DNA from: Vulcanimicrobiota bacterium
GTDB taxonomy: Bacteria > Vulcanimicrobiota > Vulcanimicrobiia > Vulcanimicrobiales > Vulcanimicrobiaceae
Direction of reading: 5' to 3'
Assembly (NCBI GenBank): GCA_003135555.1
Contig: PLCF01000089.1
Coordinates: forward strand, 1-19,740
Length of the DNA stretch: 19,740 nt
In this document: one piece after another, positions 8,004-17,065 of the stretch
Position numbering within the stretch: the stretch's first letter is position 1
Layout: each line of letters begins with the position of its first letter
Position numbers and translations under genes: made by a program
The notes under the pieces: generated by a model
Told to the model about the DNA's origin: nothing
The model's input: the letters and a program-made list of their open reading frames with translations, nothing else
Database searches by the model: none

Positions 8004-9092
8004 ATGCCCGCCAATATCGTGATGCCGAAACTCGGGCTGACGATGACGAGCGGGACGATCGCGCGCTGGATCAAGCGTCCGGGCGACGCGGTCCGCGCGG
8101 GCGAGCCGCTGGTGGAAGTGTCGACCGACAAGATCACCTACGAGGTCGAAGCGCCGGCCGGCGGAACGCTGGCGCAGGCGCTGGGCAACGATGGCGACGA
8201 GTTCGCCTGCGGCGACGTGATCGGCACGATCCGCCTCGCCGGCGAATCCGATGCGATGGTCGCGGCCCCGGTCGAGGCCCCGCCGCCGGGTGCGAGCAAC
8301 GGCACGCGCGTCATCGCGTCGCCGGCTGCGCGCCGGCTCGCGCGCGAACACGGCGTCCCGCTCGGCGAGGTGCGCGGCACCGGCCCGCGCGGGCGGATCA
8401 CGCTCGCAGACGTGCCCGTACTCCCGTCGAGCTCGCCGCCGGATCGGTTTCCCGCGCGGTTGCCCGCCGCGCGCCGCCCGATCTACCGCAAGATGACCGA
8501 GGTGGCGCTGCTCCCGCTCGCGCAAGTCGAGACCGTCGCGCGGGTCGACGCGGTGAAAGCGCTGATCCAACGGCGCGGCGATTTTGGCTGGACCGCGTTC
8601 ACGGTGTATGCGGTGGCGCGGCTGCTGCAGGAACACGCGGACCTGCGCACCGACGCATCGACGGGTGCGCCGTTCGAGCGCGTCGATATCGGCGTCGCCG
8701 CCGACACGCCGCACGGCCTGATCGTCCCCGTGGTGCGCGACGCCGGCGCGCGTACCTTGGCCGAGATCCAGCGCGAGATCGTCCGCCTCGCGTCGGCGGC
8801 GCGCGACGCCGCGCTCGGTCCCGGCGACGTCGGGGGCGCATGCTTCTCGATCTCCAACGTCGGACCACAGGGCGTGGAACGCGTGGTCCCGCTCCCCGAC
8901 CCGCCGCAAACCGCAATCCTCGGCATCGGCGCGGTCACCCAGCGCCCCGCGGTCGTGGAAGGTGCCGTCGCGCCGGCCTGGATGCTCACGTGCGTGGTCT
9001 CGTTCGACCATCGCTTCATCGACGGCGCCCCCGCCGCGCGCTTTCTAGCCGCGCTCGCGCACGCATTCACCGACCCCGGAGTCTTGCTCTAG
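8004..9092 (+). CDS. acoC: Dihydrolipoamide acyltransferase E2 subunit
   Basis: Lipoyl domain (MPKLGLTM...VSTDKIT), E3/E1-binding domain (ASPAARRLAREHG...GTGPRGRIT), catalytic FSISNVG and FDHRFIDG. Confidence 0.85.
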   Translation: MPANIVMPKLGLTMTSGTIARWIKRPGDAVRAGEPLVEVSTDKITYEVEAPAGGTLAQALGNDGDEFACGDVIGTIRLAGESDAMVAAPVEAPPPGASNGTRVIASPAARRLAREHGVPLGEVRGTGPRGRITLADVPVLPSSSPPDRFPARLPAARRPIYRKMTEVALLPLAQVETVARVDAVKALIQRRGDFGWTAFTVYAVARLLQEHADLRTDASTGAPFERVDIGVAADTPHGLIVPVVRDAGARTLAEIQREIVRLASAARDAALGPGDVGGACFSISNVGPQGVERVVPLPDPPQTAILGIGAVTQRPAVVEGAVAPAWMLTCVVSFDHRFIDGAPAARFLAALAHAFTDPGVLL

Positions 9093-9106
9093 TGATTCAA
9101 GAAGGC

Positions 9107-9232
9107 ACAATGGTCATGGACCGAGCGCAGCAGCATCCTCCGCGTAGCAGGGCGTCGTTGCGAGGTCAAACCCGGGGGCCCCACGCAAAGCGTGGGGGGC
9201 GCGCAGCGAGAGCGGAGCGCCGTTAAAATGGA
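9107..9232 (+). mobile_element. 126-bp interspersed repeat, copy 1 (MIRU-like start-codon insertion; 118-bp unit bounded by AATGG direct repeats)
   Basis: 123/126 identical to the reverse complement of 12271-12396. AATGG at 9109-9113 and 9227-9231. Internal hairpin CCCCACGC-AAA-GCGTGGGG. Internal ORF 9110-9226. Confidence 0.8.
9110..9226 (+). CDS. 38-aa mini-ORF inside repeat copy 1 (putative translational-coupling peptide)
   Basis: GAAGG-caca-ATG GTC ATG GAC...CGT TAA-A-ATG; MVMDRAQQHPPRSRASLRGQTRGPHAKRGGRAARAERR. Confidence 0.45.
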   Translation: MVMDRAQQHPPRSRASLRGQTRGPHAKRGGRAARAERR

Positions 9233-9974
9233 ATGGTTTGGGGAGAATCCGCCTACGGCGATTGTTACGGGTGGTGCGAGCGGGATCGGGCGCGCTGTTT
9301 GCGAGTTGTTGTCGCAGAACGGGTATCGCGTCGCGGTTGCGGATCGCGATAAGAAAGGTGCCGACGAGGTCGCGCACCATATCGACGGCTACGCGTTTGA
9401 GGTCGACGTTGCCGACGAAGCCTCGGTGATCGCGCTGTTCGACGGCGCGCTGCAGGCGTTCGGCGGAACGCTCGATGCGCTGGCGACGCCGGCCGGGGTC
9501 GCCGACACGACGCCCTTCATGGAGTTGACCGTCGAGACGTTCCGCCGCGTGCACGACGTCAACGTGGTCGGCACGTTCTTGTGCATCCTCGAGGCGGCCA
9601 AGCGCATGCGTTCGGGCGGGCGCATCTGCACGGTCGCCAGCGTGGCGGGGAAGCGCGGCGGCGGGCTGTCCGGGACGGCCGCCTACGCCGCCAGCAAAGG
9701 TGCCGTGCTTGCGCTGTCGCGCAGCGCGGCGCGGGCGCTGGCGCCACACGGGATCGCCGTGAACTGCGTCGCGCCGGGGCCGACGCTCACGCCGATGTTG
9801 GACGAACCATTCAAGAATGCCGAGCAGCGTACGCGCGTCGAAGCGATGACGCTGCTCGGACGATCCGGGGAGCCGCGCGAGATCGCCGAGGCGATCGCGT
9901 GGCTGCTCTCGCCGCGCTCGTCGTACGTCGCCGGGGAGACGTTGACGATCGACGGCGGCCTCATGCTCGACTGA
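9228..9974 (+). CDS. Short-chain dehydrogenase/reductase (SDR, FabG-like, likely NAD-preferring)
   Basis: TGGASGIG, acidic VADRD, catalytic YAASK, VNCVAPG, GETLTIDGG. True ATG is at 9228; the upstream 12 aa in the ORF track belong to the repeat. Confidence 0.92.
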   Translation: MEWFGENPPTAIVTGGASGIGRAVCELLSQNGYRVAVADRDKKGADEVAHHIDGYAFEVDVADEASVIALFDGALQAFGGTLDALATPAGVADTTPFMELTVETFRRVHDVNVVGTFLCILEAAKRMRSGGRICTVASVAGKRGGGLSGTAAYAASKGAVLALSRSAARALAPHGIAVNCVAPGPTLTPMLDEPFKNAEQRTRVEAMTLLGRSGEPREIAEAIAWLLSPRSSYVAGETLTIDGGLMLD

Positions 9975-11021: not shown

Positions 11022-11063
11022 CGCAGAAGAGCCCACCCCGTGCCGTGCCGAACGGGTCGAGTT

Positions 11064-11540
11064 GTGAACGTTTCGCGTCTTCGGCTCGCTTGGGCGCAGG
11101 GTGGGCTGCTCGCGCTCCTCGTCATGACGGCGTGCGCGCCGTCCGCGCCGCGCATCCATCTCCCCAGCCGCACCGACGCCAACTGCGAGAGCCGGTCCGT
11201 CAAGAAGACCGCCATCGACGCGATCGTCGCGTCGACCGACGATACCGTGCGCGACACGCACTATCCGGGTGATGCGGCGCTGCGCGCCCGCGTGAAGCGC
11301 AGCGGCGGCGTCTTCGCGTATTGGACCGACCAGCCGTTCCGAGCGCCCGACACGGCCAAGGCGCTCGGCGTGAACGGCGACCTGTCGCTCGCGCGGGCGG
11401 TGATCACCAACGAGCTCGGGCCCAAGCAGCAGTACCGGCCGGTCTGGCTGACCTTCGCGACGCCGAAGGGCGACGTGACCGTCCTCGAGCGCGCCTACGA
11501 CGTGCAGAACGTCTGCATCGAAGGCCGCCGCGAGCTCTAG
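11064..11540 (+). CDS. Putative lipoprotein of unknown function
   Basis: Basic N-terminus, hydrophobic stretch GGLLALLV and lipobox-like MTA-C; GC-rich third positions; two further Cys. Start uncertain (GTG 11064 or 11040). Confidence 0.65.
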   Translation: MNVSRLRLAWAQGGLLALLVMTACAPSAPRIHLPSRTDANCESRSVKKTAIDAIVASTDDTVRDTHYPGDAALRARVKRSGGVFAYWTDQPFRAPDTAKALGVNGDLSLARAVITNELGPKQQYRPVWLTFATPKGDVTVLERAYDVQNVCIEGRREL

Positions 11541-11863
11541 GCGTTGGGGCGAATGCGCCGGCGCAGGTCGGGTCCGACGAGTTGCTCGACCAGCAGCGCC
11601 ACGACCAGCATCCCGGTTTCGATGAGGGTGAACGCCCGCGCGGTCGGCATCCCCGGTCGCGCGATCAGCGCTGCGAGGATCAGCAACCCGAAGCCGATGA
11701 GAAACCGCACCACGCCGCGGGCGAGCACCAGCGGCATGCGCACGGAGCCGGCGACGTCGCGCGCCAGGCGCAACGGCGGACGGGTCCCGATGTCCCAGAC
11801 TGTGAAGGCGAGCGCGTCGAACACGATCGCCAACGCGAACCGGACCACGACGAGCGTGCTCAC
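11537..11863 (-). CDS. Small membrane protein (about 3 TM), downstream of sufU
   Basis: Three hydrophobic segments; begins 16 bp after the sufU stop; stop overlaps the convergent lipoprotein stop (CTAG). Confidence 0.6.
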   Translation of the reverse strand: MSTLVVVRFALAIVFDALAFTVWDIGTRPPLRLARDVAGSVRMPLVLARGVVRFLIGFGLLILAALIARPGMPTARAFTLIETGMLVVALLVEQLVGPDLRRRIRPNA

Positions 11864-11879: not shown

Positions 11880-12275
11880 TTAGTGCGGTTCGTCGGGCCA
11901 GGAGGCGATCTCGCCGAGCGCGGCGCTCTTGAGCACCTTGAGCCCGAGCATCGCGCACTTCATGCGCGTCGGGCTGATACCGATCCCGACGTTCTCGAGC
12001 ACCGCCTCTTGCGGCAGCCGAGCCACGTCTTCGAGCTTCATCCCCTTGATCGACTCGGTCAGCATCGAAGCCGAGGCTTGCGAGATCGCGCAGCCGCGCC
12101 CGCTGAACTTGATGTCCTCGACGCGCTGATCTGCGTCGAGCGCGAGCTCGATTCGAATCGTGTCCCCGCACAACGGATTGAGGTCCTCAGCGCTCGCATC
12201 GACCCTTTCGAGATGCCCAAAATTCCGCGGACTCCGATAGTGGTCGAGGATGTACTCTTTGTAGAAATCGTCCAT
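11880..12275 (-). CDS. sufU: SufU/IscU-type Fe-S assembly protein
   Basis: YKEYILDHYRSPRNFG, NPLCGD, GRGCAISQAS, PTRMKCAML; follows sufS. True ATG is at 12275. Confidence 0.88.
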   Translation of the reverse strand: MDDFYKEYILDHYRSPRNFGHLERVDASAEDLNPLCGDTIRIELALDADQRVEDIKFSGRGCAISQASASMLTESIKGMKLEDVARLPQEAVLENVGIGISPTRMKCAMLGLKVLKSAALGEIASWPDEPH

Positions 12276-12396
12276 TTTAACGGCGCTCCGCTCTCGCTGC
12301 GCGCCCCCCACGCTTTGCGTGGGGCCCCCGGGTTTGACCTCGCAACGACGCCCCGGTACGCGGACGATGCTGCTGCGCTCGGTCCATGACCATTGT
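12271..12396 (-). mobile_element. 126-bp interspersed repeat, copy 2 (fills the whole sufS-sufU intergenic space)
   Basis: Inverted copy of 9107-9232 with 3 substitutions. Begins on the last base of the sufS TGA and ends in the sufU ATG. AATGG direct repeats 118 bp apart. Confidence 0.8.
12277..12393 (-). CDS. 38-aa mini-ORF inside repeat copy 2
   Basis: sufS TGA-ca-ATG...TAA-a-ATG sufU; MVMDRAQQHRPRTGASLRGQTRGPHAKRGGRAARAERR. Confidence 0.45.
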   Translation of the reverse strand: MVMDRAQQHRPRTGASLRGQTRGPHAKRGGRAARAERR

Positions 12397-13646
12397 CACG
12401 AGAGGCGGAAGACGTCGGCGGCTTTTTCTAGCGCGCGGACGAGGGCGTCGACGTCTTCTTCGGTGTTGTAGAGGTAGAACGACGCACGGGCGGTCGCGGG
12501 CCAGCCCATCTTTTCCATCAGCGGCATCGTGCAGTGGTGGCCAGCGCGCACGCAGACACCTTCGGTGTCGAGGATCGAGGCCAAGTCGTGCGCGTGGATG
12601 TCGCCGAGGTTGAACGAGATCACGCCGGCGCGGTCTTCGGCGCGCGGCGGCCCGTAGACCGCGAGGCCACGCGACTCGAACGCACGCAGCTGGGCGAGCG
12701 CATACGCGGTGATGCGGATCTCGTGCGCGCGCACCCAGTCCATCCCGATGTCGCTGAGGTAGTCGACCGCCGCGCCGAGCGCGATCGCGTCGGCGATGTT
12801 GCTGGTGCCGGCCTCGAACTTCCAGGGCAGTTCGTTGTAGGTCGTCGTCTCGTAGGAGACGCGCTTGATCATGTCGCCGCCGGTCAAGAACGGCGGCATC
12901 GCCTCGAGCAGTGCGCGCTTGCCGTACAGGAACCCGATCCCGGTCGGGCCGCACATCTTGTGGCCGCTGGCGGCGAGGAAGTCGACGTCGAGCGCCTGCA
13001 CGTCGACGGGCATGTGCGGGACCGACTGCGCGGCGTCGACGAGCACGACGGCGCCGGCGGCGTGCGCGCGCGCGACGATGACGTCGAGCGGCGCGATCGA
13101 CCCGATCGTGTTCGAGATGTGGGCGAGCGCGACGAGCTTCACGCCGGCGAGCAGATCGTCGAGATGCTCGAGCGCCAACACGCCGTCGCGGTCGGCCGGG
13201 ATGAAGCGCAGCTCGGCGCCGGTCTTGGCGGCGAGAAGCTGCCACGGCACGAGGTTGGAGTGGTGCTCGAGTTGGGTGGTGAGGATCGCATCGCCGGGCC
13301 CGAGGTTGGCCAGGCCCCACGAGAAGGAGACGAGGTTGATCGCCTCGGTCGTGTTGCGCGTCCAGATGATCTCGGCGGTGTCGGCGGCGTTGACGAAGCG
13401 GGCGACCTTCGCACGCGCAGCCTCGAAGGCGTCGGTCGCGCGTGCGGCGAGCTCGTACACGCCGCGATGGATGTTGGCGTTGTCGTTCTCGTAGTAGTCG
13501 ACCAGCGCTTGGATCACCGCGCGCGGCTTCTGCGAGGAGGCGGCCGAGTCGAGGTACACGAGTCGTTTGCCGCGCGACGTGAGCTTGGCCAGGATCGGGA
13601 AGTCGGCGACGATCGCTTCCTGCTTGCGGTCCGTAGCTTCGATCAT
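12396..13646 (-). CDS. sufS: Cysteine desulfurase, class II (SufS)
   Basis: LVYLDSAASSQKP, NANIHRGV, EHHSNLVPWQ, PLP lysine SGHKMCGPTG, catalytic VRAGHHC. Confidence 0.96.
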   Translation of the reverse strand: MIEATDRKQEAIVADFPILAKLTSRGKRLVYLDSAASSQKPRAVIQALVDYYENDNANIHRGVYELAARATDAFEAARAKVARFVNAADTAEIIWTRNTTEAINLVSFSWGLANLGPGDAILTTQLEHHSNLVPWQLLAAKTGAELRFIPADRDGVLALEHLDDLLAGVKLVALAHISNTIGSIAPLDVIVARAHAAGAVVLVDAAQSVPHMPVDVQALDVDFLAASGHKMCGPTGIGFLYGKRALLEAMPPFLTGGDMIKRVSYETTTYNELPWKFEAGTSNIADAIALGAAVDYLSDIGMDWVRAHEIRITAYALAQLRAFESRGLAVYGPPRAEDRAGVISFNLGDIHAHDLASILDTEGVCVRAGHHCTMPLMEKMGWPATARASFYLYNTEEDVDALVRALEKAADVFRLS

Positions 13647-16538: not shown

Positions 16539-17065
16539 ATTTCGCTAAATTTCAAGAGCTCGTCGAGCATCGGACCGGATTTCGGACGATGGAGAAGCCG
16601 ACCGCGAGCGGTGAGTACTTCAGCGACTCGTGCGGCGATCTGTACACGTTCTTCTTGAAAGTCGGGCCGGGTGACGTGATCGAGGACGTCTCGTACTTCA
16701 CGACCGGGTGCGGTTTTGGGACCGCGACGTGTTCGCTGCTGGTCGAGTTGGCCAAGGGCAAGACGGTCGACGAAGCGCTGGCGATCACCGACGCCGACAT
16801 CGAAGCCGCCCTCGACGGGTATCCCGAAAAGAAGAAGGACTACCCCGAGCGGTCGCGCTTCGCGCTGCAGGCCGCGATCGAAGACTATCGGGCCAAGCGC
16901 GCGGCCGGCCAGATCACCGACGCGATGCTCGAAGAAGCGCGCGCGACCGTCGCGGCGGCTTCGGCTGCCGCGAACCAGCGCGGGAACGGCACGACCCAAG
17001 AGGATGCCAAGGCCGACCCGCGCGTCCTCGAAGACGCCGGCGTCCTCACCATCAAGCTCCATTAG
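16535..17065 (+). CDS. Atypical IscU/NifU-N-like scaffold protein
   Basis: ATGA overlap with the sufR stop; SCGD, TTGCGFGTATC, LAKGKTVDEA, ALQAAIEDY; third canonical Cys absent. Confidence 0.82.
   Translation: MNFAKFQELVEHRTGFRTMEKPTASGEYFSDSCGDLYTFFLKVGPGDVIEDVSYFTTGCGFGTATCSLLVELAKGKTVDEALAITDADIEAALDGYPEKKKDYPERSRFALQAAIEDYRAKRAAGQITDAMLEEARATVAAASAAANQRGNGTTQEDAKADPRVLEDAGVLTIKLH

Follow-up and report, generated by a model that had tools for sequence, protein, structure and literature searches.

The window, by which we mean the whole 19,740-nucleotide stretch of Vulcanimicrobiota DNA analysed here, carries two copies of a dispersed repeat of about 120 bp which is confined to one family of Vulcanimicrobiota/Eremiobacterota, uncultured bacteria of soil and peat. 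It is not a new kind of element; it is lineage-restricted, structured and MIRU-like in its working. The element is probably mobile, the occupancy and orientation of a given junction differing between species, and selection for a translational relay accounts at least in part for its position at start codons. The explanation which we favour, and hold to be reasonably probable as a whole, is that of a non-autonomous repeat moved in trans, whose copies at gene junctions are retained by selection for translational coupling.

The two stretches, 9107-9232 on the forward strand and 12271-12396 on the reverse strand, are 123/126 identical, with differences at positions 32, 41 and 43 of the pairwise alignment. 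They form by far the longest repeat in the window, the next inverted pair being 50 nt at 70%. A previous sequence-only reading had described both as ending in the ATG of an operon-internal gene, coding for an SDR protein in one case and for SufU in the other, and this was borne out. The core of copy 1 (9110..9227, +, subfamily A) is located between the stop codon (9090-9092) of a gene for an E2-type 2-oxoacid dehydrogenase acyltransferase (8004..9092, +, PF00198) and the start codon (9228) of the SDR gene (9228..9974, +, PF13561). Its mini-ORF (9110..9226, +) comprises 38 codons with two in-frame ATGs, has no Pfam match and ends with a TAA 1 nt before the SDR ATG. The predicted fold includes a 5′ domain P1 (9119..9167, +), in which the helix strand GACC-GA-GCG (9119-9127) pairs with 9159-9167, forms a tandem G·A/A·G mismatch and encloses a variable middle of about 25 nt. 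It is followed by hairpin P2 (9179..9197, +), a CCCC-stem-loop-GGGG structure, and by hairpin P3 (9198..9221, +), which has a GNA/GNA internal loop and contains an SD-like GGAG (9214-9217) 10 nt before the ATG. A poorly conserved, GAAGGCAC-like stretch (9098..9109, +) is probably the 5′ leader of this copy; leaders resembling it precede other copies and are absent at empty SDR junctions. No promoter- or terminator-like site was detected at copy 1.

The core of copy 2 (12276..12393, −, subfamily A) lies between the stop codon (12398-12396) of sufS (12396..13646, −, class-V aminotransferase, Aminotran_5, PF00266) and the start codon (12275) of sufU (11880..12275, −, NifU_N, PF01592). Its 38-codon mini-ORF (12277..12393, −) is coupled at both ends: the ATG is found 2 nt behind the sufS TGA and the TAA 1 nt before the sufU ATG. 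The Pfam scan behind these assignments covered nine of the window's proteins. The window had been said to hold no transposase, and no transposase-like ORF stood out in its ORF list. Copies 1 and 2 bound a 3-kb segment in inverted orientation, for which no inversion was seen in the gene order of relatives. Within this segment, between a TRAP solute-binding gene and sufU, are two small genes without Pfam match (11040-11540, + and 11537-11863, −). A second gene with a NifU_N domain (16544-17065, +) is divergent from the suf operon; the start of its homologue bears an element copy in G007 and G011.

A multi-copy, non-autonomous element had been proposed from the window, and the proposal was supported at the genome level. 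BLAST of the window unit against its own genome (G000, 84% complete) gave at least 40 matches, with scores for 40 of 65 candidates. With a profile built iteratively from the 3′ half, the search settled at 45, of which 43 are complete with the 5′ domain and two are remnants fused into gene ends. Mean identity among the G000 copies is 66%; head-to-tail tandem copies occur, some of them near-identical. Element matches are present in 20/24 genomes of the genus. An exact pattern of the 3′ hairpin was found in 56/124 genomes of the family and in 0/76 other genomes of the phylum, with counts per genome ranging from 0 to 41, and gave 41 matches versus 0 with a reversed control. A GTDB pattern scan yielded at least 120 loci, and among the 80 titled loci listed almost all were from Vulcanimicrobiota/Eremiobacterota. 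Full copies also occur in a few records whose titles name Limnocylindria, Binatia, Acidimicrobiaceae or Acidoferrum, possibly mis-binned, and at pattern matches in Streptomyces, Solirubrobacteraceae and Kutzneria the rest of the element is absent. Viral contigs, plasmids and phages gave 0 matches each. The check for a known riboswitch which had been suggested was run on Rfam and returned no match to the element (one chance CRISPR-DR hit, E 0.61, fell outside it), with 0 in 16 further loci. No published description of this repeat family was found in a literature coverage without most subscription journals or supplements.

Orphan half-elements in G000 are short deletion remnants, and three remnants have turned coding. 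One (C94:33397-33451) is presumably the N-terminal extension of a gatB-like gene, another (C56:74944-74998) presumably the C-terminus of a phosphoribosyltransferase-like gene, and the third (C9:29951-30060) is taken to be ruvC read-through into the element.

All copies share a 3′ module composed of a G run, hairpin P2, hairpin P3 with its GNA/GNA internal loop and about 6 further nt, in a unit of about 118-130 bp. In subfamily A, the 5′ helix carries the tandem G·A mismatches and includes one variable pair, C-G in 59 and G-C in 20 among 81 copies. Subfamily B has a different 5′ helix with full compensatory changes. In subfamily C (L132, L137, L143, L190 and L191), the strands of the A-type tandem G·A helix stand in swapped order ahead of the shared 3′ module; the swapped order in these five loci indicates that the conserved unit is the helix, not the linear sequence. 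Pairs of P2 covary in subfamilies A and B, with G-T tolerated; stem and loop length vary, with compensatory changes. The same three helices were obtained from an alignment of 13 copies, and near-invariant structural positions run through the 81 A and 40 B copies aligned. At the middle N of both GNA motifs all four bases were found, and, as judged by eye, different species have different variable middles at a given site. Folding of single sequences was no better than that of shuffles (z −0.6 to −1.5 as RNA and −0.2 to −0.7 as DNA). Both in RNA and in single-stranded DNA, tandem G·A pairs and GNA loops are expected to be stable.

The earlier statement that terminal inverted repeats are lacking was nearly right, except for a 7-nt end complement (AACGGCG / CGCCGTT) in some copies such as the sufU copy of G007. 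Covariation between the two ends was not seen in the 81 A and 40 B copies. A TIR-type MITE was rejected on these grounds and on the absence of duplication.

Antisense copies (21) fit the 3′ profile like sense copies (medians 42.7 vs 45.0 bits) and also fit the A-type 5′ profile like them (51.1 vs 51.4 bits), whereas antisense B copies fit the B 5′ profile less well (22.5 vs 32.2 bits, P 0.02). That antisense copies keep the fold though off the mRNA suggests that its retention serves something other than the mRNA.

In other genera, a further GGGGTCCCC-tagged hairpin comes after the 3′ module (L316-L320, L322, L323, L328, L329, L333, L336 and L337). Some copies of this type (L316, L322) seem to lie in frame inside long genes, which we take to be mfd-like, and in L337 another REP-like palindrome encloses one such hairpin. 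Also in other genera, a GACGAAGTCCC-like conserved motif stands about 40 nt upstream of B-type copies at leader positions (L321, L325-L327, L330 and L331); it was not found in that arrangement in G000. As it joins other modules in other genera, the 3′ module is a shuffled building block.

With respect to genes, 44/45 copies in G000 lie between co-directional neighbours (37 sense and 7 antisense), one at a divergent pair and none at a convergent one. The co-directional background is 2236/3204 junctions (P 2e-6); gene calls (3302 genes, 86% coding) and sense/antisense classes are from our own heuristics. When distinct copies of G000 and further loci were pooled, 124/217 had a start codon at +5 to +9 behind the 3′ hairpin, 86 of them at +6, a start being counted if it opens at least 70 codons. 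The strong bias toward start codons, first noticed on two copies, was supported. The other 93 copies include 21 classed as antisense and 72 unclear. The 124 downstream genes fall into 90 clusters and are, we presume, mostly housekeeping genes. For some genes that directly follow the element, ATC, CTG or ATT seems to serve as the start codon (C21:12301, C31:12225 and C9:32683 of G000). TTG and GTG starts were dropped as an effect of the element, since an empty sufU allele also starts with GTG.

The frame of the mini-ORF is tied to the junction. In subfamily A, this frame, counted from a conserved inner start position, stops at the junction in 58/68 sense copies, compared with 7/68 and 12/68 for the other frames. 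In subfamily B, the same holds for 29/32 copies with an ATG, 24 further B copies being without one. Copies one base longer have their stop in the shifted frame in 13/13 cases versus 10/48 for the common length (P 2e-7) and lose the usual stop (retained in 3/13 versus 45/48), and the second GNA motif, which as GGA yields a GGAG 10 nt before the start, is GGA in 118/124 sense copies versus 70/93 others (P 3e-5), the P values being overstated because copies from related genomes are not independent. The first GNA motif is GGA in 51/124 sense copies. These junction stops and the frame compensation give support to a coupled mini-ORF and look like the signature of a ribosome relay under selection; as read from the sequence, the mini-ORF probably passes ribosomes on to the next gene. 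The 16S 3′ end, sought for the anti-SD of GGAG, was not found in the G000 assembly.

Alignment of the window junctions with those of sister genomes, as had been recommended, revealed clean empty sites at both. At sufS-sufU, 23 genus loci were readable and one of 24 was cut off: six are filled, one has a remnant, two carry a second repeat, two carry other inserts of about 120 nt and 12 are short or empty. Among 18 E2-SDR loci that keep E2 upstream, seven are filled, four carry the second repeat, one a remnant of it, and six are empty. Tidy, near-identical empty junctions are found in distant branches and outgroups. A single clade of the seven sufU carriers was rejected (p-AU 1.9e-6, in a test of 25 rows that excluded G010 and four outgroup rows). 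Resolution of the genus tree is poor, so that gains and losses are not countable. Seven genes have the element in sense in one genome and antisense in another; they presumably include ruvC-ruvA and both sides of a fliQ-like gene.

Clusters of shared downstream genes, which were defined at 55% identity and may include paralogues, mix subfamilies A and B in 6/18 cases and keep the same subfamily in 12/18, and the latter implies that much of the pattern is old and vertical. In peat contigs from three of four runs, the sufU junction is without the element; the checkable bridging contig is about 88% identical and thus from another species. Contigs of the fourth run (9/327 and 7/169 differences) carry the sufU copy. 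No within-species polymorphism was seen at this junction, the near-conspecific contigs being filled.

The second repeat is a hairpin dimer of CGTC/TGTC type, unrelated to the element, which fills the sufS-sufU and E2-SDR junctions in other species (L002, L004, L034 and L037-L039). It brackets genes for GIY-YIG proteins of about 100 aa in 10/10 genus loci (L284-L289, L296, L299, L300 and L304) and was found beside such genes in 0/16 loci of other families. In G000 its motif has about 37 occurrences, many of which lie within called genes and may be due to chance; the small GIY-YIG gene was not found in G000. By its arrangement, not by alignment, it looks like an Ssn/SRM-like system: according to the available text of Chenal 2025 (PMC11893778) on Ssn nucleases with NTS/SRM hairpin repeats, SRMs flank ssnA as the second repeat flanks the small GIY-YIG genes. 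The element itself was rejected as an Ssn/SRM repeat, being beside 0/26 GIY-YIG loci; this partnership belongs to the second repeat. The inserts at the sufS-sufU junctions of G019 and G003 (L019 and L022, respectively) are unrelated, of about 120 nt, and resemble tiny membrane-peptide frames. The antisense fraction of about 1 in 6 and the presence of an unrelated repeat at the same junctions are better explained by tolerance at the junctions together with selection than by a single target sequence.

The enzyme partners proposed by the sequence-only reading, IS110, HUH/Y1 or RT, were sought and no partner was found, nor did an autonomous copy turn up in the loci scanned. The same approach did reveal the GIY-YIG partner of the second repeat. 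In G000 (84% complete), Y1, RT and IS110 were not detected and GIY-YIG was seen only within a 663-aa frame. Across 40 relatives, Y1 was recorded in 6, IS110 in 7 and RT in 5, with 2 weak DUF559 matches in long frames. Y1 is present in 1/24 genomes of the genus and in 8/150 of the family, in MAGs that are incomplete. None of 28 Y1 loci is flanked by the element, and profile scans of 34, 26 and 28 enzyme loci gave weak partial matches only. Likewise, 20 stretches from low-copy genomes (21 matches) have no common neighbour gene, and closely paired copies flank ordinary genes, taken to be ruvA and a fliQ-like gene. When one metagenome set was scanned for the pattern of a related hairpin, 2 loci were obtained, and no enzyme was seen in the 450 bases covered. 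Among the genomes tallied, G036 is one outgroup row in the sufS-sufU comparison and the genus tree, one negative GIY-YIG locus and one negative genome in the genus match, Y1, IS110, RT, DUF559 and exact-pattern tallies. G189 and G234 contribute 4 of the 28 Y1 loci, and G189 is also one negative genome in the exact-pattern tally. The conclusions are independent of these three genomes.

The presence of AATGG at both ends, 118 bp apart, had led to a model of sequence-specific insertion at (AC)AATGG(A) with a 5-bp duplication, which failed on flanks and on empty sites. The direct repeats are true for copies 1 and 2 and are not a family trait: the 5-mers around the two start codons, 5′ and 3′, agree in 4/68 sense A copies, where shuffled pairing would give 2.4 (P about 0.2). 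No target-site duplication was observed above shuffled pairing in 7 windows comparing the downstream start with the 5′ flank in 124 copies. The 8-mer ACAATGGA, supposed to mark the empty sites, is found in no empty sufU or SDR junction. The sufU empties (0/12 short or empty loci with the 8-mer) read TGAC-ATG, TGACC-ATG, TAATC-ATG and similar. The SDR empties are TAG-ATG, TAGT-ATG or a TAATG overlap and lack the GAAGGCAC spacer, so that what had been reconstructed as the RBS of the SDR gene is more likely the element's own 5′ leader.

The 8-mer common to the two window sites can be traced to the two copies being the most alike pair in G000 (97.5%, the next best being 92.4%). The G000 sufU copy is 92% identical to the SDR copy of G007 and 82% to its sufU copy, which suggests that its neighbour served as the source for copying or conversion. 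As judged from these identities, local copying is the most likely reason for the likeness of the window pair. In G015 and G007, neighbouring pairs also have common middles, and nearness does not predict likeness genome-wide in G000 (near pairs of the same subfamily, 6/11 vs 400/809).

Could a recombinase or transposase, IS110/IS900-like or other, insert at an ATG target and duplicate it? The fixed distance of 6 nt to the start codon in 86/124 copies would fit such enzymatic targeting, as would a tandem copy in G021 joined at an internal ATG and a few sites (C11, L108 and L093) with a 6-8-nt upstream repeat of the gene's first bases; moreover, IS900 is said, in the title of a 1997 paper by Doran cited in PMC8141618, to target translation initiation signals. 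However, no excess of duplications was seen in any of the 7 windows or around ATGs, although old copies may have lost theirs, and the empty sites share no 8-mer. IS110 is present in 5/24 genus genomes, one of which (G002) lacks the element, and 20 IS110 loci have no element ends nearby, save one weak partial hit (E 0.075). The last result also removed a non-autonomous IS110/IS1111 derivative from consideration, and we regard start-codon targeting by an enzyme as unlikely. A further idea, in our estimate unlikely too, is that the translation-transcription machinery, and not a DNA sequence, directs insertion to stop-start junctions, the element being moved, and at times flipped in place, by a protein that reads the tandem G·A helix; it would then represent, as a non-autonomous member, an undescribed mobile class.

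It is unlikely that the element is a cis-regulatory RNA of the host, a coupling switch in which P3 would hide the SD up to translation of the mini-ORF, spread by recombination or conversion and kept for regulation, not as a selfish repeat. Such a module could account for a covarying fold with G-T pairs and GNRA-like loops, for selection on the SD-like GGAG and on the mini-ORF frame in sense copies, and for the longer, leader-like versions ahead of first genes in other genera. Nevertheless, the 124 downstream genes belong to 90 unrelated clusters, orthologous junctions are empty, hold the element in opposite orientation or hold another repeat, antisense copies keep the fold although off the mRNA, and copies per genome vary from 0 to 41.

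An early burst in the family ancestor, followed only by loss, inversion and local gene conversion after the mobiliser had gone, appears improbable. The 66% average identity of the G000 copies, the subfamily and leader often kept by same-site copies, the failure of the searches to find a mobiliser and the lack of conspecific polymorphism are what a fossil family would be expected to give. On the other hand, many exact deletions would have to be assumed for the tidy empty junctions in distant branches and outgroups, the near-invariant structural positions argue for continued selection or recent copying, and the near-identical tandems also stand against it. Retro-mobility via an RNA intermediate by a host reverse transcriptase, which the sense bias (37/44) and RNA-like G-T pairs might recall, is highly improbable, given that RT is present in only 5/24 genus genomes and was not found in G000, that none of 5 RT loci has an element nearby, that copy 1 has no promoter-like site, and that neither duplication nor tail is seen.

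In the favoured explanation of a repeat moved in trans and retained by selection, copies would arise by occasional insertion in either orientation without detectable target duplication. The enzyme supplied in trans would recognise a folded single strand, with the tandem G·A helix and the GNA/GNA loop, and the host would retain those copies that leave translational coupling intact. Ribosomes that have finished the upstream gene would restart on the mini-ORF, whose translation would melt hairpin P3, taken to hide the GGAG; they would then stop at the mini-ORF end and restart on the downstream gene. Local copying or conversion would sometimes make neighbouring copies alike, the window pair being a likely example. 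With hundreds of copies, alleles that are empty, filled or flipped, and frameshift variants that arose naturally, the family makes the relay testable with simple reporters. Two unrelated repeats compete for the same operon junctions. For annotation, the element accounts for non-ATG starts and for spurious N-terminal extensions of genes in this lineage.

Among known systems, REP/REPINs are the first to be compared. As far as the available part of Di Nocera 2013 (PMC3733652) shows, these are non-autonomous, GC-rich palindromes, lineage-restricted and intergenic, with strand-specific hairpins, and in these respects they are like the element. REPs often lie between convergent genes and near upstream stops, whereas the element is found between convergent genes in 0/45 cases and is anchored to the downstream start rather than only to the upstream stop. 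A REP/REPIN-RAYT/TIRYT assignment was rejected: the consensus of 81 A and 40 B copies has no GTAG/CGTC tag and none of the 28 Y1 loci, from incomplete MAGs, is flanked. IS900-type IS110 elements are autonomous, of 1.4 kb, with a DEDD recombinase; insertion at translation starts is alike, but the ends of the element are not common to the IS110 loci of its relatives.

Mycobacterial MIRUs, which had been named as the known analogue, proved to be the right one. In the available text of PMC12548453, MIRUs are described as apparently mobile units that insert at start codons and whose ORF is coupled to the gene at a −4 spacing; in that of Delihas 2011 (PMC3184786), they measure 40-100 bp, number 40-50 copies and have empty sites and tetranucleotide repeats. 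As described in these partial sources, the likeness covers copy number (about 40-50 per genome versus 45 in G000), an intergenic position inside operons and at start codons, a mini-ORF that is coupled to the gene behind it, relatives with empty sites, inverted repeats rich in GC within the unit, and tandem copies. The element differs in its host, which belongs to another phylum, and in its length of about 120 bp against 40-100 bp. In place of the −4 spacing described there, it mostly has a TAA or TAG 1-4 nt before the ATG, mostly at +1, with the −4 overlap only sometimes. The tetranucleotide direct repeats described for MIRUs have no counterpart above shuffled pairing, which the age of the copies may hide. 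The movement of MIRUs and their landing on start codons have been open since 1997, and the 2025 review, in its available part, cites only the original paper (PMC12548453); machinery-steered insertion, if true, would also explain MIRUs. Taken together, the element, compared with MIRUs by description and not by sequence, seems to work like a MIRU and is not filed as one since it fails the direct-repeat test. Unlike MIRUs, it has about 1 in 6 copies in antisense, a three-domain covarying fold with a tandem G·A helix, and a strand-swapped subfamily.
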